Below are positions 1 through 36,433 of a DNA stretch of 64,000 nucleotides, piece by piece. The notes under the pieces were generated by a model that did not search any database, was not told the DNA's origin, and saw only the letters and a list, made by a program, of their open reading frames with translations. Numbering within the stretch: the first letter of the stretch is position 1; every line of letters starts with the position of its first letter. The DNA lies in the NCBI RefSeq assembly GCF_964204865.1, contig NC_135251.1:26908001-26972000 (forward strand). Reading direction: 5' to 3'. The DNA comes from Styela clava. Taxonomy: Eukaryota. The position numbers were made by a program, and so were the translations under genes.

Positions 1-2151
1 GAAATGAGATCGTGAGGCATCGGGTACTTTTGAGTGTTCATTACTTTTAATTTTGGATTCGACTGGAAGAGCAGGATACAATATCACTTTATCTGGATAG
101 TTGAAAATGAATGTTTTAACTTTGAAATACCAAGTTGTAGCATTTTTTCCATTTGCTACGTAGAAAAGATCGCCACTTCCAACTGGAGCCGCTATATACA
201 GGTTATTGCAGTTGCATTTTAGATTAACCCCTCCAGAAGATAAACGTACTCGGAATGTTCTAACAAAATAAATCAAAATAAGTAGGAATTATTAATAAAA
301 AAATAGAAAAAATTGCATCCAAGCACATGAGCCTATTTGTATTTAAGTGCAAATTAGTTTGGCAATTTAATAAATCTTTATTTTTTCTGATTGCAAACGA
401 TAAATATTATGTATCTTTGCGCTGACAATACTATGTTACACATGTCCACCGCACGCTTATGAGTAATTTTTAGTAGATGTAGGGCTTTGGAACGGATAAG
501 TATATGGCCTGCTGTAACTTCTTTTTATATAATACGCTACCTTATTCACTCCCTTTGCTCAGATCAAAGGCCTATTCAACGATATAAAAACGCAATCTTT
601 CCGGTTCGGCATTGCCTACCCCAGGGTGGTCCAAACCCAGGCCCGCGGGCCACATTTGGCACGCCGCCTCATTATCTGTGGCCCGCGTCACATTGGGAAA
701 GTAATCAAAAATGCGGATTCTATTAGCCTAGGATGACTATGTGTACAATAAAAGTGTTTGTTTTGCAGTCTTTTCCTATTCTTGGCACTATTGTGGCCCG
801 TGAACAATGTAAAAATAATTTTGTGGCCCTCGGAGCCGACAACCTTGGACCACCCTGGCCTACCCTATTTAGTACACTATAGATGAGGTAAGGCCGGCAT
901 AGAGTAAATCTACGAGATGTGTAATAAACGAAGTTTCATTACTGTCTGCATAAAGATCTCCAGCTGCAAATTTAATCGACAAATCGTTTTCGATACTCAT
1001 CATCCAATCCTGTTTAGCAGACAATTGTTGGGTTTGTATTGGTAGGTGTTCACTAGCTTCCCAAGAGATCCACTTTTGCGAGGAATGAGCTTCTAGAATC
1101 TGCACCATAAATTGTGCCAATACGCTGATCGGAAACAAAAAAGAATTTGCATATTTAGCTCCTTTTCTGGTAATATTGTGCGGAAGGAATATTCTAATTA
1201 CCAAAAAAACATGAGAAAATACAAACCTTTGAATTAGAGTAAACGATGGAGTAATGAGCCACATGATATCTTCGGTTGGATTTTCAGTCGTCACCATATA
1301 TAATTTCCCACTGGTATGGCGAAGATACCGGTCACGGGACTTTCCGGCACGCAGAAGCATACCATGTCCTGGGTAGATAAGAATAGCGAAAAATCTGCAA
1401 AACGATTGGTTATCAATCACTGTATCAAATAAAAAACATTTCTTATTGAATAACATGTCCTGCATATTCCGTTTATATATATAACCCGAGGACTTCGTAA
1501 CGCAAGATGCGTTCACAAAAAAGTGCACTTGTGCAAAATCATAAAATTAAACACTTTTTTTAGACAAAATCAGACCATGTCAAACCATCTTTTCAGAACA
1601 GACGTAAATATAAATCGATTATTGTAAATTTGATTTTAGTCAGCGGGCTGACAATTCGTTATTGACCTATCGGCCCTATGCCGGAGAAACTGATCGTATG
1701 AAAGAGGTCAGGTTAATGATATTTCAAGCTCTTAAAAAGGTCTGTGTTACTACTATTAACACCGATTTATATAGAATGCTATTGTTGCAATTGATCGAGG
1801 TGTTGCCATTGATATAAGTCTTAAAAAATCTTGCCTCCCTTTTTTATTTTCTCCATTATCTTCATACTGAAGAGTGACGTCATTGTTGTTATCATTATAC
1901 GTAACGTAAAGCTTCTTTCGGTTGACTGATGAAATGACGTGAAAACTCCATAAAGCTTCATCACCGCGCCTTTCGACTCTCCATTGTTCGAGAACATCTG
2001 GACGAAGTTCCACCGGAATATTATCATTCAAAGCTCTATTACTTGAAATCCATTTCCCACCTTCTTTGTCCCCGATTTCTAGGCTAATGTAAGATGAAAC
2101 TTCACTGTCGGTCTCTCCACTTGTCGAGCTTTCCAAATTTTCAGATGACAT
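1..2151 (-). CDS. Double beta-trefoil-like protein, paralogue 1; exons 2151-1835, 1394-1227, 1124-(930 or 876), 259-<1; 3' end runs off the window
   Basis: Exon peptides are homologous to the other paralogues (KWISSNRALNDNIPVEL; GMLLRAGKSRDRYL; KWISWEASEHLPIQTQQ; GGVNLKCNCNNLYIAAPVGSGDL). Acceptors are ttttgcag, ccgatcag and ttgttag. Exon B is 168 nt as in the paralogues. Intron 1 has a GC donor. The exon C donor is ambiguous. Confidence 0.75.
622..857. mobile_element. hAT (Charlie/Buster-like) MITE in intron 3 of paralogue 1
   Basis: TIRs CAGGGTGGTCCAA / TTGGACCACCCTG; 8-bp TSD GCCTACCC at 614-621 and 858-865. Confidence 0.9.
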
Positions 2152-3357
2152 TTTATTTTCACCATTAAAGGCCTAAAAACATTTATGATAGTAATTGTGA
2201 TGCCAGGCAGTTAAAACACAAACCACTACGAAACTGCTAAACACATTAAATCTACATCGTCTATTTGTCGAATCAAGAATGGGAATACACCAATTTGTAT
2301 ATAGCTGGGATACTTGACGATTACTTAGGACAGACAGGAAATTAACTGGTTTCTATCGCGATTCCAGCAAATGCTTCAATTGGAAGACTGACTCATTATT
2401 TACTAAAGTTTTCTACCTGAGTCAAGCATCCGGCTTCCGTTATTAAGTGATTCAGAAAATTAAAAAATATCGTTACATTACTCATAATAAAATTACGATA
2501 CATTGCTACTGTTGACTGGAAACTTCCTTAGCCACTATATGAAGATGGTATAAGTAGAATATCGTTCAAGTTTTACAAATTTTAAAATCGAGTCTTATGA
2601 TACACGATATTTAACCAGAAATTTAGCTGTTGTATTTCATTTAAAAGGAGCACTTTTTCTGTATCGCTTGTTCGTTGATCTTTTCAGCAAACCCATTGGT
2701 CTCAGTGCTGATGCGTGATCTTTGTGATCGTATATATTTGTGCATCATCTACGCCATATCGCCAACTATTTACAGGCATTTTTTGTTTTTGTCACAAATT
2801 CAGAACAACCTACAAATAAGACACTGACAATGCACCTGTGTTGTTGTTTGAAATGAGATATGTAATTGACAATTCTACAAATAGCCACAGATGGAGAAAA
2901 CACATATATATATATATATCATTTCTTGACAAACTTTGACAATAATTTAGTAGAAGACTAGTTTCTCAGACAGCATACTTGTATATTTATATATTTATTT
3001 ACTAAGACTTTCAAAAAAAGATAATTGGCATATACATGTGCTGATGCCAGTGCTGAAACTATATTGCCATTAATATCAACACTATACATGCCATATAGAC
3101 GTGAACACACTTCCAGAACCTCAAATATAACAATAACAGCCTGGGATGTAACAATAGGACACACGTTTAAGTGGTTTGGTTCTTATTTACAGGGTGGCCC
3201 CAAAAATAAATTATAAACTTTCTAATTAGTTTTACGAAAATTAAAAAAATTATTTTACATGTGAACTATTTTACAGTTTGTGTAAATTTTGTGACGGTGT
3301 AATTAAACACTAGTTCACATTTGTTGACAAACAAAGATTTTTCAAACTATATCACAA

Positions 3358-6092
3358 TCAAACTATATCATAATATGGCACAATGATGGTTTTGTCTTTG
3401 TATTTCAAGACAATTCTTGTTGTCATTATGTCCCAAACAGTAGCATTCTTTTTTCCTGGTAAAAAGTGAAGGTCGCCGCTTCCCTCTGGAGCGACTACGT
3501 ATTGATTATTAGATTTGCATTTCAAGAGTACTCCACCTCCAGTATCATGCCATGTAAATTCCCTGAAAATAATAAATATGGAATTCAAAAATAGAATTAT
3601 TAACGTTTCCTTTATAACTGCCAGACTTTCATATGGGCTGGTAAATTTCAACCGTCGTAATACATATTTGGGATTTTGAGTGGGAAACGAATTCGGCACC
3701 GACACGAACACGATTGAAGCAGTAGAGTCTTGCTTGAAAATGAGCAAACCTACTGGTTAATTAATATTTGATTGGCCACTGATAGGCGTGCGACAAGATG
3801 GGTGGGAGTGCTTCTTTAAGTTCGTACTGCAATTATCGTACTAACTTGTTTTTCGGACGTGAAAGAAGGCAGTTCGCCGTTTACTCTCCGATGGGCGACA
3901 GACCGGACAGAAGTTTTGAGTTGAGTGTGTCTGTTTATGCCAGTTTGGATATATTTTAAAGCTATACAAACAGGGTCACAGTGAATATAAACGTGAAGTT
4001 TTGCCGATTGCAATGACATTCAAGTAAGAAATGAAACATTTCCGACATATAGGGCTGAGTTCATTTCATCAGTTTCTTTGTACCATAGGTCGTTCCAATA
4101 TTATACAGATTTTCGTTACAGATTTAGGCATTTTCACTGGTTTAGGTCACCGAGAAAACAGTGCTTTGTCTCGAAAGCACTTTTAACTCGCAGTGGATGA
4201 ATGATACTTACGCTGGGACTGAACCAAACAATAGTTGACTTATATTTACTTCTGCATACAAATTTCCGGCTGAAAATTCACAACTCCGACCACTGTCTCT
4301 AAAGTTAAGCTGCCATTCCTGCAGAGCGCCGGTTTGTTGTACTTGGATTGGTGCGTTTATTTTTGCATCTTGGTACACCCATTTATTTGCAATGGGATCA
4401 TTTCGAATTTCTGCGAGACGGGAAAGAGACACACTGTAAAATATGTAAATTAATATTTATTATTCAAATTAATATTTATTGGAAATATTATGAGAATCCC
4501 TTATTCAGCAAGCATTCCCATGTCGCACGTTATCAAGGTTCTTGATTATATCAACCTTTAAAAAGTAAATGACGCACGCTGTAATATCTTCGAACGAAGC
4601 CGTAATGAACCATTCCATATCATCAGTAAGATTTTTTGATGTTGTCATTTCTAACTTTCCTCCGCTGTTTCGTACGTATCTGTCACGTGAATTTTGAGCC
4701 CGCAGAAACATCCCGAAGTTTGGTTTAGGCAGCATATAAAAAAATCTACAAAAATGTAGAGTTATAATGTAAAGAATTTTCTGCAATCTGTTGAGTGCAA
4801 CCTGAAGTAGTATAAAACGGATGTCTCGGGACTAAAGGCTTTTTTTTCTTTTGAATCATTTAAAACCCCATTTGTAAGAAATGCAATAGAGTGGAATAAA
4901 ATTTATTTTTAACTCGGAAGCACGCTACTTGGTGAAAAATATAATTGGATGGTCATGAGAAACTATCAAATGTCGGAAAATCTCTATCAAGAGGATTTTC
5001 ATCTTAGTCCACCGGCGGCAAATAAATAATAGTGATTTATTAATTTGTATCTTAACTTACGGAGGTTCACGCGCCCCCTGGATCCATCAAAATATTTTGG
5101 GGGTTCATGAGCTAAGCATGCACATGATAAAAACAAAACAGCGAAATTCATCTATTTTTCTTTGTGGTCTAGCTCTCATAAACGGCAATAAGGTACAACG
5201 CAATCAACCAGATTACGAGTTACGAACACATGATCTTGCTCATGTGAACAAACATAGTCATTAGCTTTAAAAACTTATTCAATTTGTCATTTTATCAAGT
5301 TCAATAGACGCTTGGCACTTTGTTGTTTTTGTTTTTTCTTAAATATTAAATATTCAGAGTATGTTAATGTAGGACAATTGTCTCTACCGACGAAGAGTTG
5401 CCTAAATTTTATGGGATAAAATTAGCAGTACAAGACTGCCATGGGATCCATGTGTTAGGTTTTCTGATTAAAAGATCAATATACTTGAATAGGGAAATAG
5501 AATATGTGAATTAAAGTATAAAATTGTCAAAATTTTGTATGAAATGTCAATAAATCAAAAATATTCCTCGGCTAGGCAAAAATGAACTTACATGGGAAAC
5601 ACACCCACCTGGAGTTTTGAGATGAAGATTATACTCATGTTTTCAACGAAAATATTAAATCTAAGTTATGCTGACGGGCCAGTCAGTGTGACTAGCGATT
5701 GCGTAAGGCATGTTGAATGAAATATTTATAATTTCTATTTTATACTTAAAAAGTGTTAATACATTTATAAATCTGAATTTGCTTCACCTTCCTTTCCCGT
5801 TGTTCTGCGTGATGTCATCTAATTCTTCTAGAGTAACGTCATCGCTGTTGAAGTTATATGTGACGTACATCTTTTTCCCGTCATCTAATAAAATGTAAAA
5901 ACTCCACAAGGCTTCATTTTTTGATCTCTCAAGCTCCCATGCTTCCGTTACGCTGGGATTTAGTTGTACAGGTATATTGTCATGCAAGGATCTATTTTGT
6001 GATATCCATTTTTTCCCGTCTCTGTCACCTATTTCAAACTTGAAGTTGATCGGATCGTTATCCTTTGTTGTTCCTGCCCAATGTGATTGCAT
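3358..6092 (-). CDS. Double beta-trefoil-like protein, paralogue 2, 299 aa; exons 6092-5788, 4745-4578, 4433-4212, 3562-3358
   Basis: GT-AG introns, all phase 2 (AG|gtgaag, GC|gtgcgt, GC|gtaagt). The spliced length is 900 nt and open. The frame stays open up to an acceptor at 6121-6122, so a short N-terminal extension is possible. Confidence 0.85.
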
Positions 6093-6989
6093 AATCACAA
6101 TATTGTTTACACAGATGTACCTACAGATTATGATTTCTGATTAAATAAAAGGTCATATAAAAATAATCATACTAAGCACAAATTTGAACTGTTCTTAACC
6201 TCGAGCCCTCTATGGTGTATGTTGCTTTGTACAACTTTAACCCATATAATGCTTTTATTATTCATTTAAAAGCTCAACCGAACTTTGAAAAAAAAAAATT
6301 ATTATAACGATCGCGATCGACTGATCGCTATCGAATGGGCTGATAACTGCACACACGCATATACACAAAATTCCACCGCTGCCAATAAGAAGGCTTTGTG
6401 GGCACATTATTATTAAAATCGACATAAAATTTTAATTTTTTATGTTCCATTTAAGTTGTTGATTTGATCATTTATTTGTACCCGGAGTAAATGTTTCATC
6501 ATTTATTTAAGCTTTATTGAAATCATACAATGCAGATAAAAGGCGTGCCTAATTTTTAGTCGTTAGAGTTAAAAATTCCTAAAGAAACCTTGCCAGTTAT
6601 TATCCAAACAGCGAAAAAAAAATTCTCAAACCATGAATGTTACATGACTGCCCAAACTTCAGTATTTAAGTTACAATTTACTCCAAACGCGATTCTTTGC
6701 TTGCTTAAAATTAGAACAAATTGGGCATTTTTATGCCACTGCTACCATTGCGAAAAAAATCTATCACACTACTCTTGGAGTGAGACAATAATTTTTGCAT
6801 ACTTTTTCAGCGTGCCGGATATCGCGTGTCTACGGCATACTGCGGAAGTTATTGTAGGATCGTTTGTCAGTCTAGACACGCGATATTCGGCACGTCATTT
6901 TTAAACTTTGGCAGAGGAAAAACTGGCATTTGTTACGTTATAATATGCTTTATCGGGCTCGCCCAGACTCAAATACAGTGTATGTGTAT

Positions 6990-7663
6990 TAGAGCTAAGA
7001 TCTGGAGCCCACCCGACCCGGGTCGGGCCTGAAATGCCAATCATTACGTTGGGGTCGGGCCTGAAATGTCAATCATTACGTTGGGGTCCGGCCTGAAATG
7101 TCAATCATTACGTTGGGGTCGGGTCTGAAATGTCAATCATTACGTTGGGGTCGGGCCTGAAATGTCAATCGTTACGTTGGGGTCGGGCCTGAAATGTCAA
7201 TCATTAAGTTGGGGTCGGGCCTAAAATGCCAATCATTACGTTGGGGTCGGGCCTTAAATGTCAATCATTACGTTGGGGTCGGGCCTGAAATGTCAATCAT
7301 TACGTTGGGTCGGGCCTGAAATGCCAATCATTACGTTGGGGTCGGGCCTGAGATGTCAATAATTACGTTCGAGTCGGGTCGGGCTTCTCTATCGCTGACT
7401 TATTTTGAAATGAATACCTAAACTATGCGTGGATACTAAACAAAGGAATATATACTTGTTATAAATGAAATAATTTGAATAAAACAGAGAAGAAGCTGTA
7501 ATGGACCTTTCCCCGACTTTGACCTCGAAAATATTCTTCCTACACCATACCCGGCTCGGGTCGGCGAATTCAGTTAATTGGTCGGGCTCGGCTCGGGTCG
7601 GGTTTAATACCCACGTGCCCGGATCGGGTCGGGCTGTAATTTTTGGGCCCTATCTTACCTCTA
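6990..7663. mobile_element. hAT-like non-autonomous element containing a minisatellite
   Basis: Imperfect TIR TAGAGCTAAGAT / ATCTTACCTCTA; subterminal CCCGACCCG/GGGTCGGG motifs; absent from the paralogous site at 16500. No clear TSD. Confidence 0.6.
7020..7382. repeat. 32-bp minisatellite, ~11 copies (GGGTCGGGCCTGAAATGTCAATCATTACGTTG)
   Basis: Head-to-tail units with period 32 and no spacers. Confidence 0.95.
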
Positions 7664-8351
7664 GTGCAAGCATGTAAAACTCATTAATGCTGTATTTATT
7701 CAATCTCCAATTACTTTTTATTGAAATTGGAAACTGGAAAGGGCATAAAATATCCAAAGAAGCTGAAAAGTTTTGCAAAGATTGACTTCATAGTTTTATT
7801 CAAATAAAGCACAAATATGTGCGCAAGGTCTTGATTCTAGCTCTATCATATCCAAGTGTCATAAGAAGATAATACCAAAAGCTTTCAGCTGAGCCTGCTT
7901 TTACAAAAATTGCTTTTGATTTGATCCAGCTAAATGGCGATGTTTCTTCAATGTAGTGTAATTTAGAAGTGGTAAGTTTTGTAATTTAACGGAATGGCCA
8001 AAACCGTATTCCTAATTATTTATTATTTAAATATGGAAGGAATTCCAAACTGTAAACAAATTGGTGCTTGGTTAGTGACAAACTTAGGTCTCAAAATCGA
8101 CAATTCTCATATTCAAATATTTGAAAATTTTCCCAAAATCAAAGAATATACTAAATCGAATATAATAAACCTCTGATATGTTCGAATATTCAATTTGTTT
8201 TGGACATCCTGATTTTAGGCTTTCTTTTTCATCAACTGCTTATACTATACAAAAGCAGTATGCTCGCCAGCTTTGCATTTTAAAGGAGTTTTTCATGATT
8301 TAGAGGGTGATAAATATTTTGCAATTAGCCTTAAAACTATTTACAACCAAT

Positions 8352-9319
8352 CAGGGATGGACAATATACAATAGGGAATTCGGAGGATTCGAATCCAAAA
8401 GGATCCGATAACAAGATTCGGTTTCCGCCTCTTTGGCGCTGTGCGTTAATTTTTGTATTTCGGATCTCTAATTTATTATTCGGTGGCGACCGTTTTCTCT
8501 CGCGACGAAATCTCCCTCGCTTTATTAAACTTGTGTTTTTTCGCAAAGAATCAGCAAAAGCGACAGACATCAGACACAGTAATCTCAGCTTGCATATTCA
8601 GAACGCAAAGACGGTGTGCACCTTTTTCACGTTTTACAATTTGACTATCTACTTCGCCTATAATAATATTTATTATTGGTGCATGCTGTAGACTTACTGG
8701 CGATTTTCCGATTACAACAATCTTAAATTTTTGGAATTCGTGGAACATTCTTCATTTTGATTTAAATGACTTTTCGCGGCCTTCAAGTTCTTCCGGAAAA
8801 TGATTTGTACCAGACGTTAGAATAGATGATAAACATTTTTTACGAATAATTTATATCAAATTTTACTTTCCACGACACCCCGTTTCCGGAAATACGAAGT
8901 TAAATCGCAAAACAAGGCGTTGCATTACATTCATTTTGCATTCCCAATAAAATATATATTTTCCGTAATTGAAGTCGTCGATGAATCCATTTCTATTAGT
9001 ATTAAAGTGTATAATGCGCTATTTATTTCAACACATAAGTATTTAGAGATCACATAAAATCGAAGTAAAAAGAAATTTGTTAAAATTCTTATATTTTATT
9101 GTCGTATTTGGTAAGGAATTGAATCCAATGCTCAAGGTCTTTTTAAATTAAATACAAAGGTAGTAGTACAATTTTGCGTTTTTTGAATTGTAATCCATAA
9201 ATATGGTGGGAGAAATTCCACATTTGAATAACAATAAAAATAGAATAGGATTGATTCGGTACTCTGGATTTGATTCAAGTATTCTAGAATAGCAAATTAT
9301 TCTATATTGCCCATTCCTA
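8352..9319. mobile_element. hAT-like non-autonomous DNA transposon
   Basis: TIR CAGGGATGGACAATATA / TATATTGCCCATTCCTA; 8-bp TSD CAACCAAT at 8344-8351 and 9320-9327. Confidence 0.85.
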
Positions 9320-9541
9320 CAACCAATGAAAACTGTTTTATGTGTTTGACTGACCATCTACACTGGTACATTCAACACTTTCTGGCTATTCAAATACAAT
9401 TATATTCAAGTTAGAAATTAAGAGCCTGATGTCGGTTTCGTTCTTGAAAAATGAGGTTGTTTGGGCAATCACGCAATGGATATAAGTGGAAACAATTGTT
9501 TTTGACTTTGACTTTTGAAAAGAAAAAAATCAAGGGTATTA

Positions 9542-9651
9542 CCGTGTTTCCTCGAAAATAGAACCTAGCCTAAATTTGTAAAATTATTTCAATATAAGAC
9601 CTCCCTTTAAAATAGGACCTAGTCGATAGCGCGACCTAGCCGGAAACACGG
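9542..9651. mobile_element. Tc1/mariner (pogo-like) MITE
   Basis: TIR CCGTGTTTCC / GGAAACACGG flanked by TA on both sides. Confidence 0.75.
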
Positions 9652-10294
9652 TATCTGATGAAACATCAACGAATTTTCTCGAGATAAGATTAGTAGTATT
9701 CTTTTGGCTACAGCTACACTCTTACGTAACATAGACCTCCTGTGCCACCTTTTCTTCATGAAGTTGTAGAATGCATGCTAGTTATACTTGCTTGTTTAAC
9801 TTATTGGTGTAATTTTAATTCGAAATCTACATATGCTTGTGAGTCTCTGTTTTTCATTATTAGTAGTCCGACTGTTGAAACTAATAGCCTAGTGTATTTC
9901 TCTGAAGCTTAAAATATAAACGCAATTAGAAATCTCTGTCAGTGGTCTCAGAAGTCTCACTGATACAGCATTAGAAAAGTAATCAAATTTTTTTGTCGGA
10001 CTAACATTTTATTGAAAAGTAACTTGATACCTGTTTAAACGGTTTATTACCGTGAATTGGTGGAAAGTGTTGGTTGGAAAGTAGCAAAGCATTGTTAAAG
10101 GTGAATGAATTTTAGGTATATTGCGTTTTCACGGTTTGGGAGGATTTTTTTTCCTCCATGCTCTTTACATATACTTTTAATTTTGAAATGTCAGTCGTAT
10201 GTTCTCACAAATTTCGACTGGCACGCGGAAGAATTTTGTTATTGAATTAAGTCGATTTGGGCACGCAAGCCGAAAAGAACCACCCCTGACCTAG

Positions 10295-10575
10295 GGTGTA
10301 ACAGATCATATCAAATGGGTCAGTTTAATAATATTTCAAGCTCTTAAGGTCTATGTTACAACTTAACACCGTATTATATAGAATGCTATTGTTGCAATTG
10401 ATCGAGCTGTGGGCAGTGACATTATGGATTTATGGGTCCTAAAAATCTTGCCTCCCCTTGCCATTTCCTTCATTATATTCATGCTGAAGAGTGACATCCT
10501 TGTTGCCATCATTATACGTAACGTAAAGCTTCTTTCGGTTAACTGATGAAATGACGTGAAAACTCCATAGAGCTC
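10295..10575 (-). pseudogene. Remnant of a paralogue-1-type gene (3' half of exon A plus the start of intron 1)
   Basis: Encodes LWSFHVISSVNRKKLYVTYNDGNKDVTLQHEYNEGNGKGR followed by gcaag, matching ~1690-1955. The 5' half of the exon is replaced by unrelated sequence ending GCTACGCCACTA (~10943). Homology to ~2260 resumes near 10950. Exons B-D are missing. Confidence 0.85.
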
Positions 10576-12340
10576 CAAGCGGTTAGAATTTAAAAATTTG
10601 AGCCGCAAAACCATAAGCTGCATTGCAAAACCCGTAACGTACAGTCGTCGATTTTCTGCGTCTTGTGGTTTGATCGCACCGGCAAAATTACGAAGGCTGT
10701 CAGAATGATGTCGAAAGCAAAACCTCTCAGTGGCGCACAGAAACGCAGAAGCACGTATGAAAAAAATCAAAGCAACGAAGATAAACGGCAAATTTCAGGT
10801 TACCATTGCCTTTTAATAGCGACATGTTATGCTTTTTGACGAAATAAAAAAAGCGTTGTTTTAGCTTATGTCCGAGAGTTTTTAGGGTAATTTCCACGAA
10901 ATATTTTTGCGGGGGGGGGGCACGAGAGTCTTGCTACGCCACTAGCCTCTATATATGTCGAATCAAGTATGGGAATACAGACAATTTGTATATAACTGAG
11001 ATACTTGACTATTACTTAGGACAGACAGGAAATTAACTAGCTTCAACCGCGATTCAAGCAAATGATTCAATTGACTCATCACTTACTAAAGTTTTCAACC
11101 TTAGTCAATCATCCGGCTTCCGTTATTAAGTGATTCAGAAAATAACAATGCCTTTACAATACTCATAATAAAATTACGATACAATGCTACTGTTGACTAG
11201 AATTTTTTTTAGCCAATATTTGAAGATGGTATAAATAGACGACTATCATTTACTTTTTACAAATAAAAAAAAAATCGAGTCTTATAATACACGATATCTC
11301 ACCAGAAATTTTGCTGTTTCATTTAATTTAATCGAGAGCACTTTTTTCTGTATCGTTTGTTCGTCGATCTTATCAGCAAACCTAGTGATATCAGTGTTGA
11401 TGCATGACGTCTGTGATCGTATATATTTGAGCATCATCTCCGCTACATCGTTAACTGTTTACAGGCAACTTTTGTTTTCGTAACGATATCAGAACAATGT
11501 AAGCACTACCACGAAGACACTGACAATGCACCTGTGTTGTTGTTTGACATAAGGTATGTAATTGACAATTCTATAAATAGCCACAAGTGAAGATTTCAAA
11601 AGCACTTGTCATTCTTGACAAAGATTTAAAGAAGTCAAGTTTTTCAAACAGCATAAATGTATATATATATATATATATATATTCACCAAGACTTCCAAAA
11701 GAAGATAATTGGCATTTACATAATGAAGCTATATTTCCATTAATATCAACACTATACACGCCATATAGGCGTGAACACACTTCTAGAACTTCAAATATAA
11801 CAATATCTGAAATGTTACAATAGGACACACGTTTAGTGGTTTGGCTCTCATTTACAGGGTGACCCCAGAAATAAATTTCTAATAAAAAGAACATGAAGAA
11901 ATTTATTTTACATGTGAACTTCTGTTTGTGTATGATTTTGTAACGATGTAATTAAACACTGGTGCACATGTGTTGCTGTTCGAAGAGATAAACAAAGATT
12001 TTTCAAACTATATCAATCAATCGTCAAATTTTTTCATGTTAAATATTCCTTCATATTTCCATTGAAACTTTCTTGATTTGCTGCATTATTTTTGCATATA
12101 GGTTCAATTTTGTATTTTATGCAAAATAACATTAAATAATGACGCAATAGTTTTTGTCATTAAATTCCTTTGAAACAATAAGCTATAACGATCAAGTGTT
12201 GTTTCTTGTTTGGACCATACACAAGGGCTAACAATACCGGCTACATGATTACTAATTACTATGGGGCAAGTTCTGAATATGTTTATGAAACAGGATAATT
12301 TTATATTTTTTAAACTAAAAATAAGACATTTTATATTGAT

Positions 12341-14704
12341 CTACTTCTTTGTCTGCTTTACTTCTATTGGGTAATATGGAAAAATGATGGTTTTGTTTTT
12401 GTATTTCCAGACCATTCTTGTCCCGACTATTTTCCAAAAAGTAGAATTCTTCTCTGTTGCTGAATAGTAAAGATCGCCACTTTTCTCTGGGGCGACTACG
12501 TATCCATTATTAGATTTGCATTTTAAGCTCATTACACTTCCAATCCGATGCACTGTAAAATCCCTGAAAACAAATGAATATGGTTTAAAAATAAAATTAC
12601 GAAAGTTTCCTTCATCACTACCAGACTTTCCTATAGGCAGGAAAACACCTAACTAGCGTAATACATATTTGGAATTTTGAGGGTGAAACGAATTCGGCAC
12701 CTACACGAACATGATTGATGCAGTAACGTCAAGCCTTGCTTGAAAATGAAGAAATCGTCATATTGCAAACCTACTGGGTTATAGTTGATTGGGCACTGAT
12801 AGACGCGAAAGTGCTTTTTTTAAGTTTGTACTGCAATTATCATATTAATTAGTTTCTCGGGACGTGAAAGAAGGCACTTCGCCGTTTACTTCCCGATGGG
12901 CGACAGACCGGGCAGGAGTTTTGAGTTGAGTTTTGTCTGTTTATGCCAGCCAGGATATATTTTAGAGCTTTTCAATTAGGGTCACAGTGAATATAGACGT
13001 GATATTTTGTCGATTAGAGTGACATTCAAGTAAGAAATGAATGGCTTTTGACATATAGACCTGAGTTCATTGCATCAATTCTTTTGTATACATTAATTCG
13101 CTTCAATATTATACAAATTTTAATTACAAAATTAGCCGCTTTGCCTGGTTTAGATCACAGAGAAAGCAGTGCTTTGTCTAGAAAGCACTTTTTATCTCGC
13201 AGTTGATGAATGATACTTACGCTGGGGCTGATCCAAACAATAGTTGACTGTTTGCATAAAAATTTCCGGCTGAAAATTCACAACTCAGATCACTGTCAGG
13301 GCTGAGCTGCCATTCCTGCAAAGTGCTGGTTTGTTGGACTTGGATTGGTGCGTTCATTCGTGCATCTTGGCACACCCATTTATTTGAAATGGTATCATTT
13401 TCAATTTCAACAAAATAGGAAGACAGCACACTGTAAAAATATGTAAATTAATATTTAATATTCAAATTAATATTTACTGGGAATATTATGAGAATTCGTT
13501 TATTCAGCAAGCATTTCCGTGCTGCACGTTATCAATATTCTTGATTATATCAACTTTCAAAAAGTAAATGACGTACGCTGTAATATCTTCGAAAGAAGGT
13601 GTAATGAACCATTCCATATCATCAGTAGGATTTTCAGATGTTGTCATTTCTAACTTTTCTCCGCTGTTACGTAAGTATCTATCACGTGAATTTTGAGCCC
13701 GCAGAAACATCCCAAAGTTTGGTTGAGGTAGCATATAAAAAAATCTACAAAATATGTAAAGTTACAATGTAAGTAATTTTCTGCAATATGTTGAGTCAAC
13801 CTGAATTAGTATAAAACAGACATCTCGAGACTAAATCCCTTTGTTTGAATTAATTAAAGCACGGTTTGTAAGAAATGCAATTGGGTGAAATGATTTTTTT
13901 TTAACTCGGAAGCACGCTACTTGGAACTACAAGTTCAATAGATGCTGGACACTTTTTGTTTTTGTTTTCTCATAAATATTAATTATTTAGAGTATGTTAA
14001 TGTCAGACAATTGTTTTTACCTACGGAGAGTTGCCTAAATTTTAGAGGATAAAATTTGCGGTACAAGACTACCATGGGATCCATGTGTTGAGTTTTCTGA
14101 AGTATTAAAAGTATCAATATACTTGAATAGGGAAGTAGAATATGTGAATTAATGATTAAAATTGTCAAAATTTTGAATGAAAATGGCAATAAATCTGAAA
14201 TATTCATCGGCTAGGCAAAAATGAACTCACACGGTAAACCTAACTGGAGTTTTTGAGTGAAGATTATACTCATGTTCTCAACGATTATACTAGCCAGTCA
14301 GTTTGACTCTCAATTGCGTAAGGCATAAATGAAATGTTTATAATTCCTAGTTTATAACTAAAAAGTGTCAATACATTTATGAATCTAAATTTGCTTTACC
14401 TTCCTTTTCCGTTGTTCTGCGTGATGTCATCTAACTCTTCTAGAGTAACGTCATCGCTGTTGAAGCTATATGTGACGTACATCTTTTTTCCGTCATCTAA
14501 TAAAATGTAAAAACTCCACAAGGCTTCATTATTTAATCTCTCAAGCCCCCAACCTTCCGTTACGCTGGGATTTAGTTGTACAGGTATATTGTCATGCAAG
14601 GATCTGTTTTGTGATATCCATTTTCTTCCGTCTCTGTCACCTATTTCAAACTTGAAGTTGATCGGATCGTTATCATTTGTTATCCCTGCACAATGTGATT
14701 GCAT
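12341..14704 (-). CDS. Double beta-trefoil-like protein, paralogue 3, 301 aa; exons 14704-14400, 13744-13577, 13430-13221, 12563-12341
   Basis: GT-AG phase-2 introns (gtaaag, gtacgt, gtaagt); 906 nt open when spliced. Confidence 0.85.
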
Positions 14705-14919
14705 AATCACAATATTCTTTACACAGATGTAGCTACAGATTATGATTTCTGATCACATATTTAGAATATATATATAGAGTATATTTGTGTCTCACAAAAG
14801 GTCATATAAAAATAATCATACTAAGCACAAATTTTAACTGTTCTTAGAGAGCCTCTATGATGTATGTTGCTTTGTACGACATTAACCCATGTACTAGTGA
14901 TTTTATCATTCATTTGAAA

Positions 14920-24734: not shown

Positions 24735-24890
24735 CAGGGTGTAACAGATCGTATCAAAGAGGTCAGGTTCATAATATTTCAAGCTCTTAAGGACCATGTT
24801 ACAACATTAACACCGTTTATTTGGAAAGCTATTGTTGCAATTGATCGAGCTGTTGACATTGATATAAGTCATACAAAATCTGGCCCCCTA
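24735..24890 (-). pseudogene. Small remnant of a paralogue-1-type gene (start of intron 1 and end of exon A)
   Basis: Matches ~1690-1840 and ~10295-10458, then jumps by deletion to the sequence equivalent to ~2645. Confidence 0.65.
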
Positions 24891-25743: not shown

Positions 25744-28482
25744 CTACTTCTTTGCCTGCGTTACTTCTATTGGGTAATATGGAAACACGGTGGTTTTGTC
25801 GTTGTGTTTCCAGGCAATTCTTGTCCCCACTATGTCCCAAGCAGAAGAATTCTTTTCGTTTGCTGAATAGTAAAGATCGCCGTTTCCCTCTGGGGCAACT
25901 ACATATTTATTTTTAGAATTGCATTTTAAATGCACACCTCTTCCAATCTGATGCACTGTGAAATCCCTAAAAATAATAATAAATGTGGAGTTTGAAAATA
26001 AAAATTATAAACGCTTCCGTTTTCATTATCAAACTTTCATAGGCAGAAAAACTCTAGTAATACATATTTGTGATTTTGAGTGTGAAAATGAACGGCATCT
26101 ACACGAACAAGATTGATGCAGTGGAGCCTTACTTGAAAATGAGCAAACCCATTGGGTTATAGTTGATTGGGCATTGATAGGCGCGCGACAAGGTGGGTAC
26201 ATGGGAGGGATCTTTTTTAAGTTCGTACTGCAATTATCGTACTAATTGGTTTCTCGGGACGTGAAAGACTGTACTTCGCCGTTCAATCCCCGATGGGCGA
26301 CCGACTGGACAGGAGTTTTTAGTTGAGTTTGTCTGCTTATGCCGTTTGGATATATTTTAAAATTTATCAAACAGGGTCACAGTGAATATGATGTTTTGCC
26401 GATTAGAATGACATTCAAATAAGAAATGAGTAGCTTTCGACATATAGGGCTGAGTTCATTGCATCAATTCTTCTCTTTTTACGTTAGGTCGCTTCAATAT
26501 CATACAGATTTTTATTATTATTACAGAATTAGGCGTTTTACCTTGTCTAGATTACAGATAAAGTTTAGAGTTTTAGTTTAAAGAGCACTTTTTGTCTCGC
26601 AGTGAATAAATGATACCTACGCTGGGGCTGATCCGAACAATAGTTGACTGTTTGCATACAAATTTCCGACTGAAAATTCGTAATTCAGATCAGGACCAAA
26701 GCTGAGCTGCCATTCCTGGTGCGTACTAGTTTGTTGGACTTGGATTGGTGCGTTTATTCGTGCATCTTGGCACATCCATTTTTGTGAACTAGTAGCATTT
26801 TGAATTTCAACGTAATAGGAAGAAAGCATACTGTAAAAATATGTAAATTAATATTAGAGATTTTGGTACTCCTGAAGTATTCGCACCAAGATGTCGCATA
26901 ACCTAAACCCTAACCTGGTACACAACCTGAGTTCAGGTTGTGCGCCATCTTGGTGCACATACTTCAGGAAGTCCGAGATTTTTATATTTACTGGGAATAT
27001 AATGAAACTCTTTCTATTCAGCAACCATTTCCATGTTGCGTTATCAAGATACTTGATTATATCAACTTTCAAAAAGTAAAATGACTCACATTGTGATATC
27101 TTCGAACGAAGGCGTAATGAACCATTCCATATCATCAATAGGATTTTCAGATGTTGTCATTTCCAACATTCCTCCGCTATTACGTAGGTATCTATCACGT
27201 GCATTTTGAGCCCGCAGAAACATCCCGAAGTTTGGTTGAGGCAGCATATGAAAAAATCTACAAAAAATATACAGTTATAATTGGGCTTACCATATTTCTG
27301 AAGCAAAAGTACGGGACAGTGCAAATTGAACAAGCCAACCTTTGTTCGATGCCGAGTATCATAGTAATAGTTAAAACTTTCTCGCTGCCATTTTGGGTAG
27401 ATTATGGGCAACAAAATGAGCTGTAAATCCTATTGAAAAATACCCTCCATTGGATTTTGCTACAAATATTAGGATTCGTTCTTCAACTCGTTAGAAAACT
27501 TTCACTCTGTTGGTATACCAATAATATTGAGAATATTTGTGAGCATATCGCTGGAGGGGATATTTTGAACCCCGACTGTTTGCATTAATACACAGGGCGC
27601 ATTTTTTTTTTTGTATGTTTGTTTTTGGGCGCAGAATTTTTGATCAATTAACACAAATAACTTGAAGTTTTTATTCATTACTTATCGATCTCGATCGATA
27701 AAGTATTTTTTATCTCTACTTACAGATACCATTCCTATTATCTACAATCCAGTAATTCCCAACAAGAAGCTCATGTGTCCCGTGGATCGATCGGAATATT
27801 TTGGGGGTTCATGAGCTATAAAAACAAAACAGCGAAATTGATCCCATTTTTTATTGTGTTTTAGCTTTCATAAACACGACACAATAAACCAGATTACGAA
27901 TTAACACAGAATCTAGCTCACGTGAACAAACATATATATAGTTATAACCTTTCAAAACTTATTCTATTTGGGTACTCCTGTAGTATGCGAAACAATGTGG
28001 CGGACACCGGAACGTAGTTTTTAATAGAAGGTCATACTCATTAGTTTAACGAATCATTAAACTAAGCCATGTTGACGGGCCAGTCAGTACATCTTGCGTG
28101 ATGCAGAAAGGAAAAGTTTATAATTTCTTGTTTTATACTTAAAAACTGTCAATAAATTTAAAAATCAGTATTTGCTTTACCTTCCTTTCCCGTTGTCCTG
28201 CGTGATCTCATCTAACTCTTGTAAAGTAACGCCGTCGCTGTTGAAGTTATACGTAACGTACATCTTTTTTTCGTCTTCTGATAAAATGTAAAAACTCCAC
28301 AAGGCTTCATTATCTAATTTCTCAAGCCCCCACCCTTCCGTTTTGTTGGGATTTAGCTGTACAGGTATATTGTCATGCAAGGATCTGTTTTGTGATATCC
28401 ATTTTCTTCCGTTTCTGTCACCTATTTCAAGCTGGAAGTTCTGATCGTTTTCATTTGTTGTTCTCGCACAATATGATTGCAT
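25744..28482 (-). CDS. Double beta-trefoil-like protein, paralogue 4, 300 aa; exons 28482-28181, 27257-27090, 26830-26621, 25966-25744
   Basis: GT-AG phase-2 introns (gtaaag, gtgagt, gtaggt); 903 nt open when spliced. Confidence 0.85.
26865..26974. mobile_element. 110-bp hairpin MITE in intron 2 of paralogue 4
   Basis: Inverted arms CCTGAAGTATTCGCACCAAGATG / CATCTTGGTGCACATACTTCAGG; flanking repeat GAGATTTT; CCCTAACC inside; absent from intron 2 of paralogues 2 and 3. Confidence 0.8.
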
Positions 28483-31400
28483 GATCACAATATTCTTTAC
28501 ATAGATGTGCTCACTAATTATGATTACTGATTAAATTTTGAGTATATTTGTGTATCATAAAAGGTCACAGAGAAATAAACACACTAAGCACAAATTTGAG
28601 CTGTTCTTAAATAGCCCTTTATGATGTATGCTGCTATGTACTGCATTAACCCACGTACTAGTGAGTTTATCATTCATTCAAAAGCTCAAACGATTTGAAT
28701 ATCCCAATCAAAGTTCATACTACGTACACAAAATTTGGTTCACGGTTGTTTTCGCAGAAATCAAATAATAAATTCAATTTGGAAATATATATAATAAACT
28801 GAAACTGCAGAGGTTTTGAATGCTTCGCCTGAAGAAGATATATATCAAAAATTGATTTCGAAATTCTAAAGTCTGGGAATAATTCTAAAAACTCTTCATT
28901 TCTAATTGCGAAACATTTTGACTAAGTTTTACGTTTACACAGATAAGCTATGCTAAGGATGCAAGCAAATTTAATGTGAAAGAATATTTATTCTCAGTGA
29001 GGTAGCTTTCGTCCTTTTTGTATGTATCAAAGATTTATGTATGCAACACCAGAAAGATGTATAAGTCCCTGTATTAAAAACTGACGCTACATCGTGAGTT
29101 GAAACAAGATTGTTCCATAAATCAAAATAATCGGATGAATGGGGCGGGGCCTAGCTACTGTAATTTCTGGCTCTAAAACTTACTTTTATCTAGAAGAATT
29201 CACTCACGTACTCGGTTCCATTAGATTCAATTATCGGGGTTTTCTTCGTACATCACATTATAAGTTATATCTGTATATACAGAGAGGAGGTAGTTGAATC
29301 TTGATGAATGGGTGTTATTTCAGTAATCGAATACTATTGAAAACATTGCTTGTTATGAATACATGTGCGCTGACGCAAAGGCGAGAACATTCGTTGACGC
29401 CACTTTGGCAATTTAGGATGGTAACGCAAACCTTCGAAGGCTGGAAAAATACTATCTCAGGCCCTACGTCTCAATTAATTTGATAGAGCGCTTGCAAAAT
29501 AGCCAATATCCAAAAAATGAAGTACCGTATATTCTCGTTTTACCGCCCGATCTTCAATAATGGTCCGTTTGAATAGCCGCATGTGTGAACAAAACATAAA
29601 AATAAATAAGGGCCGGAGCTTTGAATACCCGCCCCATGTAAAAGCTGATTTTCAGTGGTAGAGAACAATATGAAATAAGGAGCGCTTTTGTCACAACGCT
29701 GTTGAATTTTAAGCGCTGGTAGATAACACTCACGTCTTAGGCGTCCAATTACATACCAGATAGCATTGATTACGTGACACCGTGGTTCTCAAACTGGTAG
29801 TCGCGACTCCCAAATGCGTCTTTTCAATATTGATAGGGCGTCGCAAAACTTTTTTCCTTTTGCGGATTTGTACTTGCGGTGCGTAGAAAAAGTCAAAATT
29901 TTGTTATTCTGTTTAAATCATACTTGAGAACTGGAAATGACAATATTTTAGTTATTGTAACGATCGATCTTATCTATATATATATATTTTTTTTATATAT
30001 TTTTGTGTATAATTTTACTTTAAAAATAACAATCGCCCGTGCTTGAATAAGATCCCGGTTAGTGAGTTTGGTTAAAAAAGTATGGGCCCGGGCAACAAAA
30101 CGAGCAAATACGGTAATTGATATTCATCATGAGCATTACAGGTTACATTGATGAAATATTGTTTATACCTTGGTTATTTCGAATATCAATTTCTTCACTT
30201 CCTAAATATTGGATATTTCGCGCTAACCAGTTAATTGAATGTTTACAAGTTTTTACTTTGACTCATTATAATTCTCAAAGAAATATGAATAGCCTATGGA
30301 CATGAAAGCCAAAACAAAATATGTTATTCACAATTTCCCCGAAACCATATCCTGAACCAAGCTCCAACGGGCTGGCCATATCCATGGGTTTAGTGTAGTT
30401 TACTACCACAAGTACTTCTAGTGAGCGTGTCGTAAATATTCTTTTGCATATGTCATTTCACACCTCAACCTAACTGGGCCATCTAAAAAATATGTCACTA
30501 CACCTGATTGCTTGTCGTACTCGCACCAAAACATTTCCGGTAAGCGAGCAACGATTTCGAATCAAAGAGGAGACAGCCATCACGCTTGGTGGGATACAAG
30601 AACCGTGCTTCGATGAGTAAAAATAGCGAAATTCAGGGTCAAATATCAGATCTCATAGAATTCACAAGAAATTCATGAGTATTTAAATTTCTAGCGATGA
30701 TAACAATTTTTAATAAAAAATTTAAAATCAATCGTAAAGTTGGAACGTGAATTCCAATCCACTCAACGTTATTGCAGTGGAGTCCTATTCGCACCCGCCT
30801 TGAAGAATTATGCGCAATCTCCCAGCTTCTAGTAACTGCACAACCAAAGTAAAGAGGCAACGAGATCCTTAGAAAACGAACTGTATTCATCAATCTCCAC
30901 ATATGGGTAAAATGTAGCTACGGCACAAAAACTTGAAAACAAACGATAAAACTAATTTATAACGACACGGATGCACTATGAACAAGCAATGAAAGAATGA
31001 CAAAATAGCATTCACAATGACAAGCTATAATAACCAATACTAAAGAGGACCTAACTGAGCTAAATTAATATAACAGATTTCACGAAACCCGCACCCCTAA
31101 TGTAAGCTATATCCAAGACAAATATCAATACTAAACGACACTTTCGCAATCCCACAATGCCGTATAGAACAAAGTATCAGGGAAGCGTTATCTCAAAACC
31201 CGAGGAAAAAGGTTCACTCCCTATATCTTCACTATGGCGCAATAATGAGTCACCGTCAACAGGTAATAAAGATAATGAAGATACAACATAATTCGTCTGG
31301 GATTGTTAATATAATAGAGAAATATAAATGGACAAAAGTGTGAGGCGTGCGAGGTCAAATCTACAATTCCGGCCCCAGATAATTTAGACTTATATTTATC

Positions 31401-32319: not shown

Positions 32320-32504
32320 ATATTTTAAGTCTCCAACATACGTGGAATACAGAAGCTCGTCGGGGGGAAAAGTTTGCTTTAAGTGCTACCGTAACGTTAC
32401 TTACAGACTTAGTGTCACCGCTAATTTCAAACGTGAAAAATGGCGTCTGCGTTACCGGACTATCCAATTTTTGATTGCGCTGATTTGTCAAGTGCCGGAC
32501 CAAG

Positions 32505-35138: not shown

Positions 35139-36433
35139 TGCAAAATGTAAAAAAATGCATTGTTTCTGGAAAATGGCAAGATTATCGAAACTGTGAAGAA
35201 ATGCGAAATTTTGAAAGTTTATCTAGTGAATTGAGCATAACTGAACAAGGCATAATTCTTCGTGGACATCGTATAGTAGTTCCTGTGAAGATGAGAAAGC
35301 AAATGGTCTCCATAGCACATGAGGGACATCAAGGAGTTGCTAAAACAAAAGCATTGATTAGAGCAAAGTTGTGGTTTCCTAATATTGACTCAATGGTGGA
35401 AAACTACATAAAAAATTGCCCAGCTTGTGCCGCTGTTACAAAAGATGAAAGATTCCAACCTTTACGAATGAGTAAATTGCCAAGAGCTGTTTGGAAATCT
35501 CTTAGTGCTGATTTCTGTGGACCGTATCGTAGTGGTGAATATCTCTTGGTAGTCATTGACAACTACTCAAGATTTCCTGTAGTTGAACTCGTAAAATCGA
35601 CATCAGCTCGTAGCGTGATTCCAATCTTTGACAAAATGCTCAAGCCAGATAATGGAACACCGTTTCAAAGTCACGAATTTAAAAGATTCATGGACTACTG
35701 TGGAATTCATCATCAGAAAATAACTCCGTTATGGCCAAGAGGAAATGCCCAAGCTGAAAATTTCATGAAACCACTAAATAAAGCAATCAAAACTGCTACA
35801 GTTGAAGGAAAATCATGGAAACAAGAATTGTATAAATTTCTAAGAAATTACAGAGCGACTCCACATGTAACAACACATAAAGCTCCTGCTGAACTGCTTT
35901 ATGGAAGAAATATTAAAGTTTTATTTCCTGAAGTAATAAAAGTTGCAGATGATAAAGAATTGCGAGAATGTGATTCGAAACAGAAAACCATACAGAAAAG
36001 GTATGCTGATAAGAGACTTTGCACAAGACCTGCTTCTCAACTGCATATTGGTGACATGGTGTTGGTTCGACAAAGAAGATATAACAAGTTAACTCCAGCA
36101 TATAACCCAGAGCCTATGACTGTTGTTGCTGTGAAGGGAAGTATGGTTACTGCAAGAAGTCCTGGTTTGGGTAACAAAACCAGAAATATATCTCAGTTTA
36201 AAAAGGTGAATGATCGACAATTTCAGACTCATGTTCCTGAAATATCAGATGAAATGGAAGTGGCTGCTGATATAATTCCTGAGGCATCAAATGAATCTGA
36301 TTCTCCAGCTGATGAGCAGATTTCATCTAGTTTCTCAAATAATCAACCTCATAACGAGATAGTGGCTCATCGCAAATCAAAGCGTTCAATCAAACTGCCT
36401 AAACGCTCCAGAGATTATAAATTGTATAAATGA
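35081..36433 (+). CDS. Gypsy integrase, frameshifted from pol near 35120
   Basis: HHCC motif (HEGHQG...CPAC); DDE core (ADFCGP, DNG.PF, GNAQAE); YRATPH. There is an apparent short deletion before DNG. Confidence 0.9.
   Translation: MSKSDHTKRNRRRDFQYPMMQNVKKCIVSGKWQDYRNCEEMRNFESLSSELSITEQGIILRGHRIVVPVKMRKQMVSIAHEGHQGVAKTKALIRAKLWFPNIDSMVENYIKNCPACAAVTKDERFQPLRMSKLPRAVWKSLSADFCGPYRSGEYLLVVIDNYSRFPVVELVKSTSARSVIPIFDKMLKPDNGTPFQSHEFKRFMDYCGIHHQKITPLWPRGNAQAENFMKPLNKAIKTATVEGKSWKQELYKFLRNYRATPHVTTHKAPAELLYGRNIKVLFPEVIKVADDKELRECDSKQKTIQKRYADKRLCTRPASQLHIGDMVLVRQRRYNKLTPAYNPEPMTVVAVKGSMVTARSPGLGNKTRNISQFKKVNDRQFQTHVPEISDEMEVAADIIPEASNESDSPADEQISSSFSNNQPHNEIVAHRKSKRSIKLPKRSRDYKLYK

Follow-up and report, generated by a model that had tools for sequence, protein, structure and literature searches.

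Why should one half of a protein change several times faster than the other half between two neighbouring gene copies? This question is raised by a stretch of 64,000 nt of the Styela clava genome (the window), which contains tandem paralogues of an unnamed and unannotated gene family with at least 15 loci in the genome. Two of these paralogues, P2 and P3, are located on the minus strand and consist of four coding exons (A–D) each. A preliminary description of the region from 3358 to 14704 (correctly placed, as these positions are the P2 stop and the start codon of P3) had claimed that between the two copies the second domain diverges about three times faster than the first.

Gene models and predicted fold

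The following features are used below (all on the minus strand, except where no strand is given):
1..2151, minus: P1, a distant paralogue that in this sequence lacks the end of exon C relative to the database variant P0022
3345..3371, minus: P2 deletion junction; about 350 bp lost, which in the P3 form comprise the final codons and the proximal 3' UTR
3358..3562, minus: P2 exon D, completing trefoil 2; runs X5 and X11 contain the spliced C/D joint
4212..4433, minus: P2 exon C, which opens trefoil 2 and has insertions of 3 nt and 9 nt
4578..4745, minus: P2 exon B, completing trefoil 1; runs X5 and X11 contain the spliced B/C joint
4746..6262, minus: P2 side of the tract homogenised between P2 and P3 (upstream DNA, exon A and intron 1)
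5788..6092, minus: P2 exon A, first part of trefoil 1; start codon at 6092
10300..10577, minus: P1 remnant (end of P1 exon A and start of intron 1) inside the P3 duplication unit
12341..12563, minus: P3 exon D, including codon 234, the strongest site-model hit
13221..13430, minus: P3 exon C, including codon 202, a site-model hit adjoining the P2 insertion
13577..13744, minus: P3 exon B; splice joints in contigs
14400..14704, minus: P3 exon A; A/B joint in runs X5 and X6
24743-24888: another, shorter piece of this end of the P3 duplication unit
25744..28482, minus: P4 (exons 28482-28181, 27257-27090, 26830-26621 and 25966-25744), identical to P0004
49041..52504, minus: P5 (exons 52504-52179, 51020-50853, 50355-50146 and 49263-49041), from a second clade

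Translation of the exon models gave exactly the database proteins P0006 for P2 and P0005 for P3, while P5 differs from P0008 at 2 positions. The splice joints of P2 and P3 are visible in contigs which we presume to derive from RNA, although no run is recorded as such. P4 is the third member of the recent P2/P3 clade and served as local outgroup. The 9-nt insertion in P2 exon C carries an alternative donor used in the truncated isoform P0002, and the final three P2 codons derive from the deletion junction, where a short duplicated stretch is found at the join. As P0006 and P0003 share this ending and a contig of run X9 spans 3224-3374 without a difference, an assembly artefact was ruled out.

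The AlphaFold model (mean pLDDT 79) predicts two beta-trefoil domains, which match exons A+B and C+D. Residues 14-155 and 159-289 of the model each align to trefoils (Z 13-16, rmsd 2-3 Å), so that both predicted halves have the fold and the size (about 125–145 residues per trefoil) of the beta-trefoil superfamily. In the structure search 148 of 48,161 chains reached Z>=8, and the 50 listed were all of trefoil type (best match Z 15.9, 2.4 Å over 121 residues). The two domains were aligned with each other by HHalign (77%, E 2e-5), and the A/B and C/D introns lie at an aligned codon, both in phase 2; judged from the sequence, the two trefoils arose through internal duplication. We searched for an N-terminal hydrophobic stretch and found none, from which a leaderless protein is predicted; several paralogues start with Cys and basic residues. 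The protein contains no catalytic or pore-forming domain.

By sequence no known family fits. Among eight exon frames, 12 proteins and 17 alignment members no member exceeded a curated Pfam cut-off, and the best PDB match by sequence or by profile had an E of 0.58. Two proteins, P0018 and P0019, were dropped as SEA-domain mucins with chance matches, and P0020 (84 aa) was excluded from the family alignment. A literature search gave no paper under six family identifiers and none on the family by title.

Divergence and constraint of the two domains

We counted 9/102 amino-acid differences between P2 and P3 in exon A, 6/56 in exon B, 20/70 in exon C and 25/64 in exon D after masking the three codons made by the P2 deletion (27/67 unmasked). 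Together, 15/158 positions differ in A+B and 45/134 in C+D, which is a 3.5-fold difference (Fisher p=4.5e-7) and confirms the earlier claim; the hand counts behind it were reproduced apart from exon C, for which 19 had been given, and the indels mentioned for this exon are the two insertions in P2. The dN values are about 6-fold apart (0.041 for A+B, 0.245 for C+D). The same contrast recurs in pairs with P4 and in two further subclades, with 16/138 differences in domain 1 vs 53/133 in domain 2 for P5/P6, 16/141 vs 56/140 for P0009/P5 and 18/134 vs 33/116 for Ca/Cd. For P6/P7 the difference counts gave p=0.21, and the dN/dS contrast in the P5/P6/P7 clade gave p=0.09.

Codon models were fitted with custom code, which yields empirical rather than Bayes-empirical posteriors and was run without null simulation. 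With branch lengths separate per half, dN/dS was 0.30 for domain 1 and 1.19 for domain 2 (p=0.006); for the trio we obtained 0.48 and 1.00 (p=0.036), and with non-coding calibration 0.34 and 1.45 (p=1e-6) at a time ratio of merely 1.34. A dN/dS well below 1 in exons C and D, which had been named as evidence against diversifying selection, was thus not observed (1.0-1.45). Could the excess then reflect relaxed constraint only, with a domain 2 that need only fold or is partly dispensable and drifts outside its core in a birth-and-death family, while domain 1 does the work? We regard this as quite possible, if somewhat short of even odds. It agrees with the three C+D fits of 1.00, 1.19 and 1.04, none of which differs from 1. 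When fitted to codons only, whole-domain-2 dN/dS was indistinguishable from 1 (p=0.59), and with intron 3 as clock it was not significantly above 1 (1.25-1.34, p=0.10-0.20); it exceeded 1 at p=0.02 only once the 3' flank was added, part of which is 3' UTR and possibly under constraint. Exon D alone, whose divergence between P2 and P3 is larger than that of intron 3 and so speaks against pure relaxation, gave p=0.02-0.04 for the pair; for the trio the value was p=0.10-0.18, all within a set of 24 tests without correction.

Domain 2 is not simply decaying, as its core positions are kept: variation is seen at 12/40 positions that eight distant paralogues conserve, compared to 53/94 of the other positions (p=0.008). 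The conserved positions have a dN/dS of 0.56 (p=0.025 vs 1) and the others 1.39 (p=0.022 vs 1), although under another conservation threshold the p values were 0.086, 0.14 and 0.06. The average of 1.3-1.4 at non-conserved positions argues against mere relaxation, and so does the retention of domain 2 across saturated distances, with dN/dS of 0.2-0.5 between clades. In favour of relaxation, variable residues are about equally frequent in loops (30/58) and strands (35/76, p=0.60). This even spread, together with the prediction of trefoils for both halves and the lack of a catalytic or pore-forming domain, does not bear out the proposed picture of a recognition surface on a conserved effector domain. 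The family is rich in broken, chimeric and sample-specific copies. Domain 2 carries lesions, again as expected under relaxation: P1 is hit at the end of exon C, P2 has its insertions, the deletion at the C-terminus and an isoform that truncates the protein, and P7, Ca and Cb are affected too. However, domain 1 is damaged as well, by a stop in P7 exon A and at the exon B end of Cb. From these comparisons we conclude that domain 1 is under purifying selection and that domain 2 is constrained at core positions only.

In the site tests, M2a was preferred over M1a for C+D in ten copies (LRT 19.7, p=5e-5) and in six intact copies (LRT 8.0, p=0.019), whereas no gain was found for A+B in any set (LRT 0). 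About 68% of the domain-2 codons fall in the neutral class, and the signal rests on two codons, being gone after codons 200-204 and 234 were dropped (p=0.37); both observations suit relaxation. Against it stands codon 234, with nine different residues among ten copies and a posterior of 1.0. Recombination, which does occur in this family, can inflate site tests. Clustered multi-nucleotide changes, another possible cause, occurred in 21/54 changed codons and 21/83 changed intron triplets (p=0.13). Replacements among database variants were distributed 8:5 over domains 1 and 2 (P3, P4 and P5; none in P2), compared to 15:45 fixed ones (p=0.019); since inclusion of P1 (0:4) changed this to 8:9 (p=0.13), we set the polymorphism test aside. 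A few domain-2 sites are likely under positive selection, for which the proof is thin. As dN/dS exceeds 1 in some calibrations only and the site signal comes from two codons, the domain-2 excess results mostly from far weaker constraint and likely in part from positive selection at few sites.

Taken together, we assign a probability of about 0.5 to the reading that these are tandem two-trefoil paralogues with a domain 1 under purifying selection and a domain 2 that is constrained in its core, likely carries a few positively selected sites and fits a variable binding module. Domain 1 would bind an invariant target, be it a host partner, a membrane or another subunit, and domain 2 a varying one, most likely glycans or microbial surfaces, while duplication, unequal exchange and gene loss may maintain several domain-2 versions in the population. 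Improbable in our view is that the same rates reflect another ligand, with the proteins acting as intracellular adaptors similar to fascin or FRG1, as protease inhibitors similar to mycocypin or as leaderless, cytokine-like proteins, and with domain 2 tracking a fast-changing protein partner. The trefoil fold is common to all candidates and cannot choose among them: the scores of fascin, macrocypin, IL-33, IL-1Ra and FGF differ from those of the lectins by no more than about 3 Z units. The N-terminus described above would suit such proteins too, and look-alikes in the Atlas included fascin/FRG1 (0.93-0.94) and the inhibitor I66, which at low recognition (1764) are leads only. No sequence match to fascin/FRG1, inhibitor or cytokine families was obtained, however, and over the whole length the best matches are sugar-binding proteins with two trefoils. 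On selection this alternative overlaps with the preferred reading; it differs on the ligand.

Homogenisation of the 5' part

The earlier statement that the introns align readily holds, but divergence is uneven along the gene: non-coding P2/P3 divergence amounts to 9.0% (30/334) in the 5' part and 16.3% (141/863) in the 3' part (p=0.0009), while the distances of both copies to P4 stay at about 17-20%. A breakpoint scan at non-coding sites (P4-only sites 51/74 vs 91/244, 0/2000 permutations) indicated a later homogenisation of P2 and P3, which is real and confined to upstream DNA, exon A and intron 1. On the P3 side the tract covers about 13745-14910; its 3' end lies near the end of intron 1, and its 5' boundary is provisional. 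Exchange is also visible in P7, a chimera with exon A from P0009 (1/83 differences) and exons B (0/54) and C (2/50) from P6. In exon trees, P2+P3 was supported at 66-69% in A and B and at 93% in C; exon D instead grouped P3+P4 (70%), so that topology exon by exon is not decisive.

The preliminary description offered diversifying selection or gene conversion of the 5' half; both causes contribute, conversion as the minor one: it adds 1.3-1.8-fold to the domain contrast, and the larger part is the difference in dN/dS. A mosaic as sole cause, in which gene conversion or unequal crossover left the 5' half younger, is very improbable and refuted as such, since a 1.3-1.8-fold age ratio faces the 6-fold dN ratio, the fits with separate ages still require different dN/dS, exon B lies beyond the homogenised tract and is still conserved (dS 0.23 yet 6/56 changes, vs 45/134 in C+D, p=0.001), and other clades and pairs show the contrast as well.

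Significance and comparison with known systems

Tunicates are the sister group of vertebrates, and S. clava is not known to have adaptive immunity. As a process, tandem copies that exchange sequence, are lost and evolve fast in one domain are already well known; new is the family itself, without a Pfam family or a solved relative by sequence. If domain 2 is a variable binder, the family would give tunicates a further repertoire for recognition; as far as the cited texts below report, IL-1 and mytilectins were looked for in this group without success. Rather doubtful, but conceivable, is an ascidian repertoire of leaderless two-trefoil sensors with a conserved domain 1 and a diversifying, exchangeable domain 2, in which exon exchange and differences in gene content between individuals generate recognition variety.

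The HA33 haemagglutinin (5bqu, 1qxm), amaranthin (1jlx) and ricin B-type chains likewise have two beta-trefoils in about 290 residues. Such two-trefoil lectins were the top Foldseek matches (E 2e-8 to 2e-5; Z up to 15.8), but share only 8-13% identity with the family, and the domain packing of the model differs (rmsd 13-17 Å over both domains). With the Ricin_B_lectin and RicinB_lectin_2 profiles, 0/17 members reached the Pfam cut-off (best E 0.11, for the distant P0021). R-type lectins repeat their sugar-binding residues across three subdomains; domain 2 contains Q-x-W-like stretches and conserved Trp in the alignment, which are at most candidates for such residues. Fascin and FRG1 are tandem, leaderless trefoils like the family (E about 1e-6, Z 14.9), which has two trefoils compared to four in fascin, and fascins are conserved proteins, in contrast to the fast turnover seen here; Pfam Fascin and FRG1 gave no match at E<=0.3 among 17 members.

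The IL-1 superfamily shares the leaderless trefoil (IL-33 Z 15.7, IL-1Ra Z 13.1). The paper on IL-1anc (PMC13736523) reports no IL-1 candidate in Styela clava, Ciona or Botryllus, and most IL-1anc are described with an N-terminal PDZ domain, some without, and with a trefoil of 3-5 exons, two central introns and an F/L-E-S motif. Measured against this account, the family differs by two trefoils, one phase-2 intron per trefoil and no Pfam PDZ hit, and the F/L-E-S motif was not seen by eye in the family alignment. Mytilectins and SeviL are leaderless trefoils of marine invertebrates as well (SeviL Z 15.4, mussel CGL Z 13.6). As far as their report goes (PMC10744619), mytilectins consist of a single trefoil, to which a pore-forming domain may be joined, and none is reported in tunicates; the family differs in its two trefoils, in having no pore-forming (aerolysin-like) domain and in giving no PDB sequence match.

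With respect to process, paired Siglecs (PMC6288428) and the fungal het-d/het-e NWD genes (PMC1805685) offer an analogy: in these paralogues, exchange of sequence goes together with fast change or positive selection at few sites of the binding surface. What is exchanged in both systems is the recognition module. In the present family, whose recognition role is putative, homogenisation has instead affected the DNA upstream of the gene and the initial portion of the conserved domain.

Gene family and predicted fold

Self-comparison of the window gave three long similar blocks (about 1.7-7.0, 10.2-16.5 and 24.4-29.1 kb), with fainter similarity around 52 kb; in these regions we found five minus-strand paralogues, P1-P5, with four coding exons (A-D) apiece. 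P2-P4 form a recent clade with P4 as local outgroup, P5 belongs to a second clade and P1 is distant. The open frames of P2-P5 have 299-308 residues.

P2: 6092-3358, minus strand, canonical splice sites, open frame
P3: 14704-12341, minus strand, canonical splice sites, open frame
P4: 28482-25744, minus strand, canonical splice sites, open frame
P5: 52504-49041, minus strand, canonical splice sites, open frame
P7 (outside the window): L003:1155-4320 on contig C2, inverted, broken chimera

P2, P3 and P4 equal the database proteins P0006, P0005 and P0004 in sequence, which are labelled 'uncharacterized, Styela clava'. In contigs of sequencing runs guessed to be RNA, the B-C and C-D joints of P2 (X5, X11) and splicing of all three P3 introns (X5, X6) were observed. 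Genome searches outside the window found two further close copies (P6, P7), four copies on contig C6 (Ca, Cb, Cd and an exon-A piece), at least four distant copies on C6 and C8 and weaker traces on C2 and C14; the family comprises at least 15 loci in the S. clava genome. Among 13 matches in 1.84 billion representatives, the relatives from outside S. clava are unnamed assembly proteins only (P0010, 46%; P0020; P0021).

No member tested reached the Pfam cut-off, and a PDB sequence search gave no match to the family. The AlphaFold model, computed from a 17-row alignment, is nearly all-beta (mean pLDDT 79); Foldseek returned 86 matches at E<=0.001, with two- and four-trefoil proteins (HA33, fascin, amaranthin, ricin B chains) ranking first. 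In a wide structure search with this predicted model, single trefoils align on residues 14-155 and 159-289 (Z 13-16, 2-3 A), and the B/C exon junction coincides with the predicted boundary between domain 1 (exons A+B) and domain 2 (C+D). HHalign aligns one half with the other (77%, E 2e-5), and introns A/B and C/D both interrupt the aligned codon in phase 2; we infer from this that the gene arose by doubling of a two-exon unit. The preliminary description had suggested, as one option, a variable recognition surface on a conserved effector domain: judging from the model, both domains are real, but they appear to share one fold, with no separate effector domain.

A hydropathy scan (not SignalP) found no hydrophobic N-terminal stretch in any member. 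The N-termini of P5, P6, Ca, P0010 and P0015 have a Cys in the first eight residues followed by a lysine-rich run, which we take to resemble putative S-acylation plus polybasic membrane anchors; residue 5 is Cys in P3 and P4 and Trp in P2.

Domain 2 evolves faster under weaker constraint

Between P2 and P3 we counted 9/102, 6/56, 20/70 and 25/64 residue differences in exons A to D, after masking three P2 C-terminal codons created by an approximately 350-bp deletion. The 3.5-fold contrast (15/158 in A+B versus 45/134 in C+D, p=4.5e-7) bears out the earlier hand count of a faster domain 2. It is real and recurs across the family: P5/P6 differ at 16/138 versus 53/133 residues, P0009/P5 at 16/141 versus 56/140 and Ca/Cd at 18/134 versus 33/116 (p=0.004), these pairs being partly non-independent; the contrast is weaker in P3/P4 (p=0.026) and P6/P7 (p=0.21). 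Outside P2-P4 the codon model was fitted to P5/P6/P7 only (dN/dS 0.53 versus 1.04, p=0.09).

With separate branch lengths per half, the P2/P3 pair gave dN/dS 0.30 in domain 1 and 1.19 in domain 2 (p=0.006); the trio P2-P4 gave 0.48 and 1.00 (p=0.036). Synonymous divergence was 0.14 versus 0.21 (p=0.30). With non-coding DNA as clock the values were 0.34 and 1.45 (difference p=1e-6; domain 2 versus 1 p=0.02), and with intron 3 alone domain 2 gave 1.25-1.34 (p=0.10-0.20). By exon, C reached 1.0 and D 1.6; the exon D excess (pair p=0.02-0.04, trio not significant) is one among 24 uncorrected tests.

Positions of domain 2 conserved across eight distant paralogues vary less often among P2-P4 (12/40 versus 53/94 others, p=0.008), with dN/dS 0.56 versus 1.39; a second conservation threshold gave the same direction, not significantly. 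Across ten copies, site models favoured a positive class in C+D (LRT 19.7, p=5e-5), with 3% of codons at 6.5, 68% neutral and 29% constrained, and none in A+B (LRT 0; 78% constrained). Six intact copies alone gave p=0.019. Alignment columns 1-24 were masked, as were those ends of P1, P7, Ca and Cb that carried frameshifts or aligned poorly. The positive class consists of codons 202 and 234: p was 0.0008 without the indel-flanking codons 200-204 and 0.37 when 234 was dropped too. Variable residues are equally frequent in strands and loops.

We read domain 2 as a constrained core with many near-neutral positions, in which one site, or a small number of sites, is probably under positive selection; the diversifying selection proposed earlier for domain 2 is in this sense partly supported. 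Neither codon-fit estimate for domain 2 (1.19, 1.00) differs from 1, and relaxed constraint without adaptive change is a serious alternative, which we rate at somewhat below even odds.

Homogenisation and gene turnover

Restricting the comparison to non-coding positions that align across P2, P3 and P4, we counted 30/334 differences between P2 and P3 on the 5' side of exon C against 141/863 on its 3' side (p=0.0009); the distances of both copies from P4 are about level along the gene. A scan of non-coding and synonymous sites placed a breakpoint at the end of intron 1, with P4-only sites at 51/74 before and 91/244 after it (as extreme in 0/2000 permutations). From this breakpoint and the step in divergence it follows that P2 and P3 were homogenised across upstream DNA, exon A and intron 1 later than the duplications, by what may be gene conversion or unequal crossover. 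The P2/P3 pairwise alignment, with more sites, gave an age ratio of 1.34 between gene parts (p=0.014). Exon B serves as internal control: it lies past the breakpoint (dS 0.23), still has only its six changes and differs from C+D (p=0.001). A pure mosaic as sole cause is rejected as very improbable. The suspected 5' homogenisation was seen, but its effect is smaller than that of the constraint difference, which makes up most of the domain contrast, with modest support for positive selection.

In P7, exon A is nearly that of P0009, exons B and C nearly match P6, and the gene is interrupted by a stop and by a frameshift. Damage is seen in P1, Ca and Cb as well. The P0009 gene itself is missing from the S. 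clava genome searched, where its domain 2 has no close copy (best 51-67%), yet the start of its exon C is present in contigs of runs X5 and X7, and an X6 contig resembles these in joint and difference counts; gene content therefore likely varies between animals.

Further features were noticed. P1 exon C lacks its final codons and donor (window 860-940, approximately), which database variant P0022 keeps; beside it lies a small inverted-repeat element (about 615-868, 8-bp flanking duplication, by eye), and the first P1 intron apparently uses a GC donor (1835, exon A end). A donor within a 9-nt insertion in P2 exon C (4240-4250) is used by the early-ending isoform P0002; isoform P0003 skips exon B, and exon skipping is annotated for C6 copies too (P0012, P0013, P0016). 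Just upstream of P2 lies a minisatellite (7020-7378; 32-bp unit, 11.2 copies, 93% matches), and an isolated, decayed exon-B-like piece lies on the plus strand at about 58412-58590. A 6.8-kb head-to-tail duplication (34297-41119 and 41126-47948, 99.97% identity), either very recent or an assembly artefact, spans part of an LTR-retrotransposon-like element with flanking repeats (about 30712-31361 and 38461-38973) and frames resembling gag-pol and integrase by eye (32484-35138, 35075-36433). On C6, an open frame of 658 residues (L011:7826-9799) that by eye looks like a DDE transposase of the pogo/Tc1 type adjoins a distant member.

Possible role and comparison with known systems

Trefoils are most often glycan binders. 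Because the best whole-length structure matches are also sugar binders, we favour a role as glycan or microbe sensor; fascin-like, inhibitor-like or cytokine-like roles score nearly as well. In such a two-trefoil protein, predicted to be leaderless, the constant half would most simply bind a fixed partner and the variable half a changing ligand.

Searches with six member identifiers and descriptive terms, covering open-access literature and few subscription papers, found no paper on the family. One study, in its accessible part, uses a PDZ, an intron pattern and a motif to define IL-1anc and found no candidate for IL-1 in Styela clava (PMC13736523); our family lacks all three features. Mytilectins were not found in tunicates, according to the accessible part of another (PMC10744619). 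The evolutionary process is familiar and the novelty lies in the family, apparently undescribed: exchange plus fast change is likewise described, in the accessible parts of the sources, for Siglecs (PMC6288428) and fungal het genes (PMC1805685).
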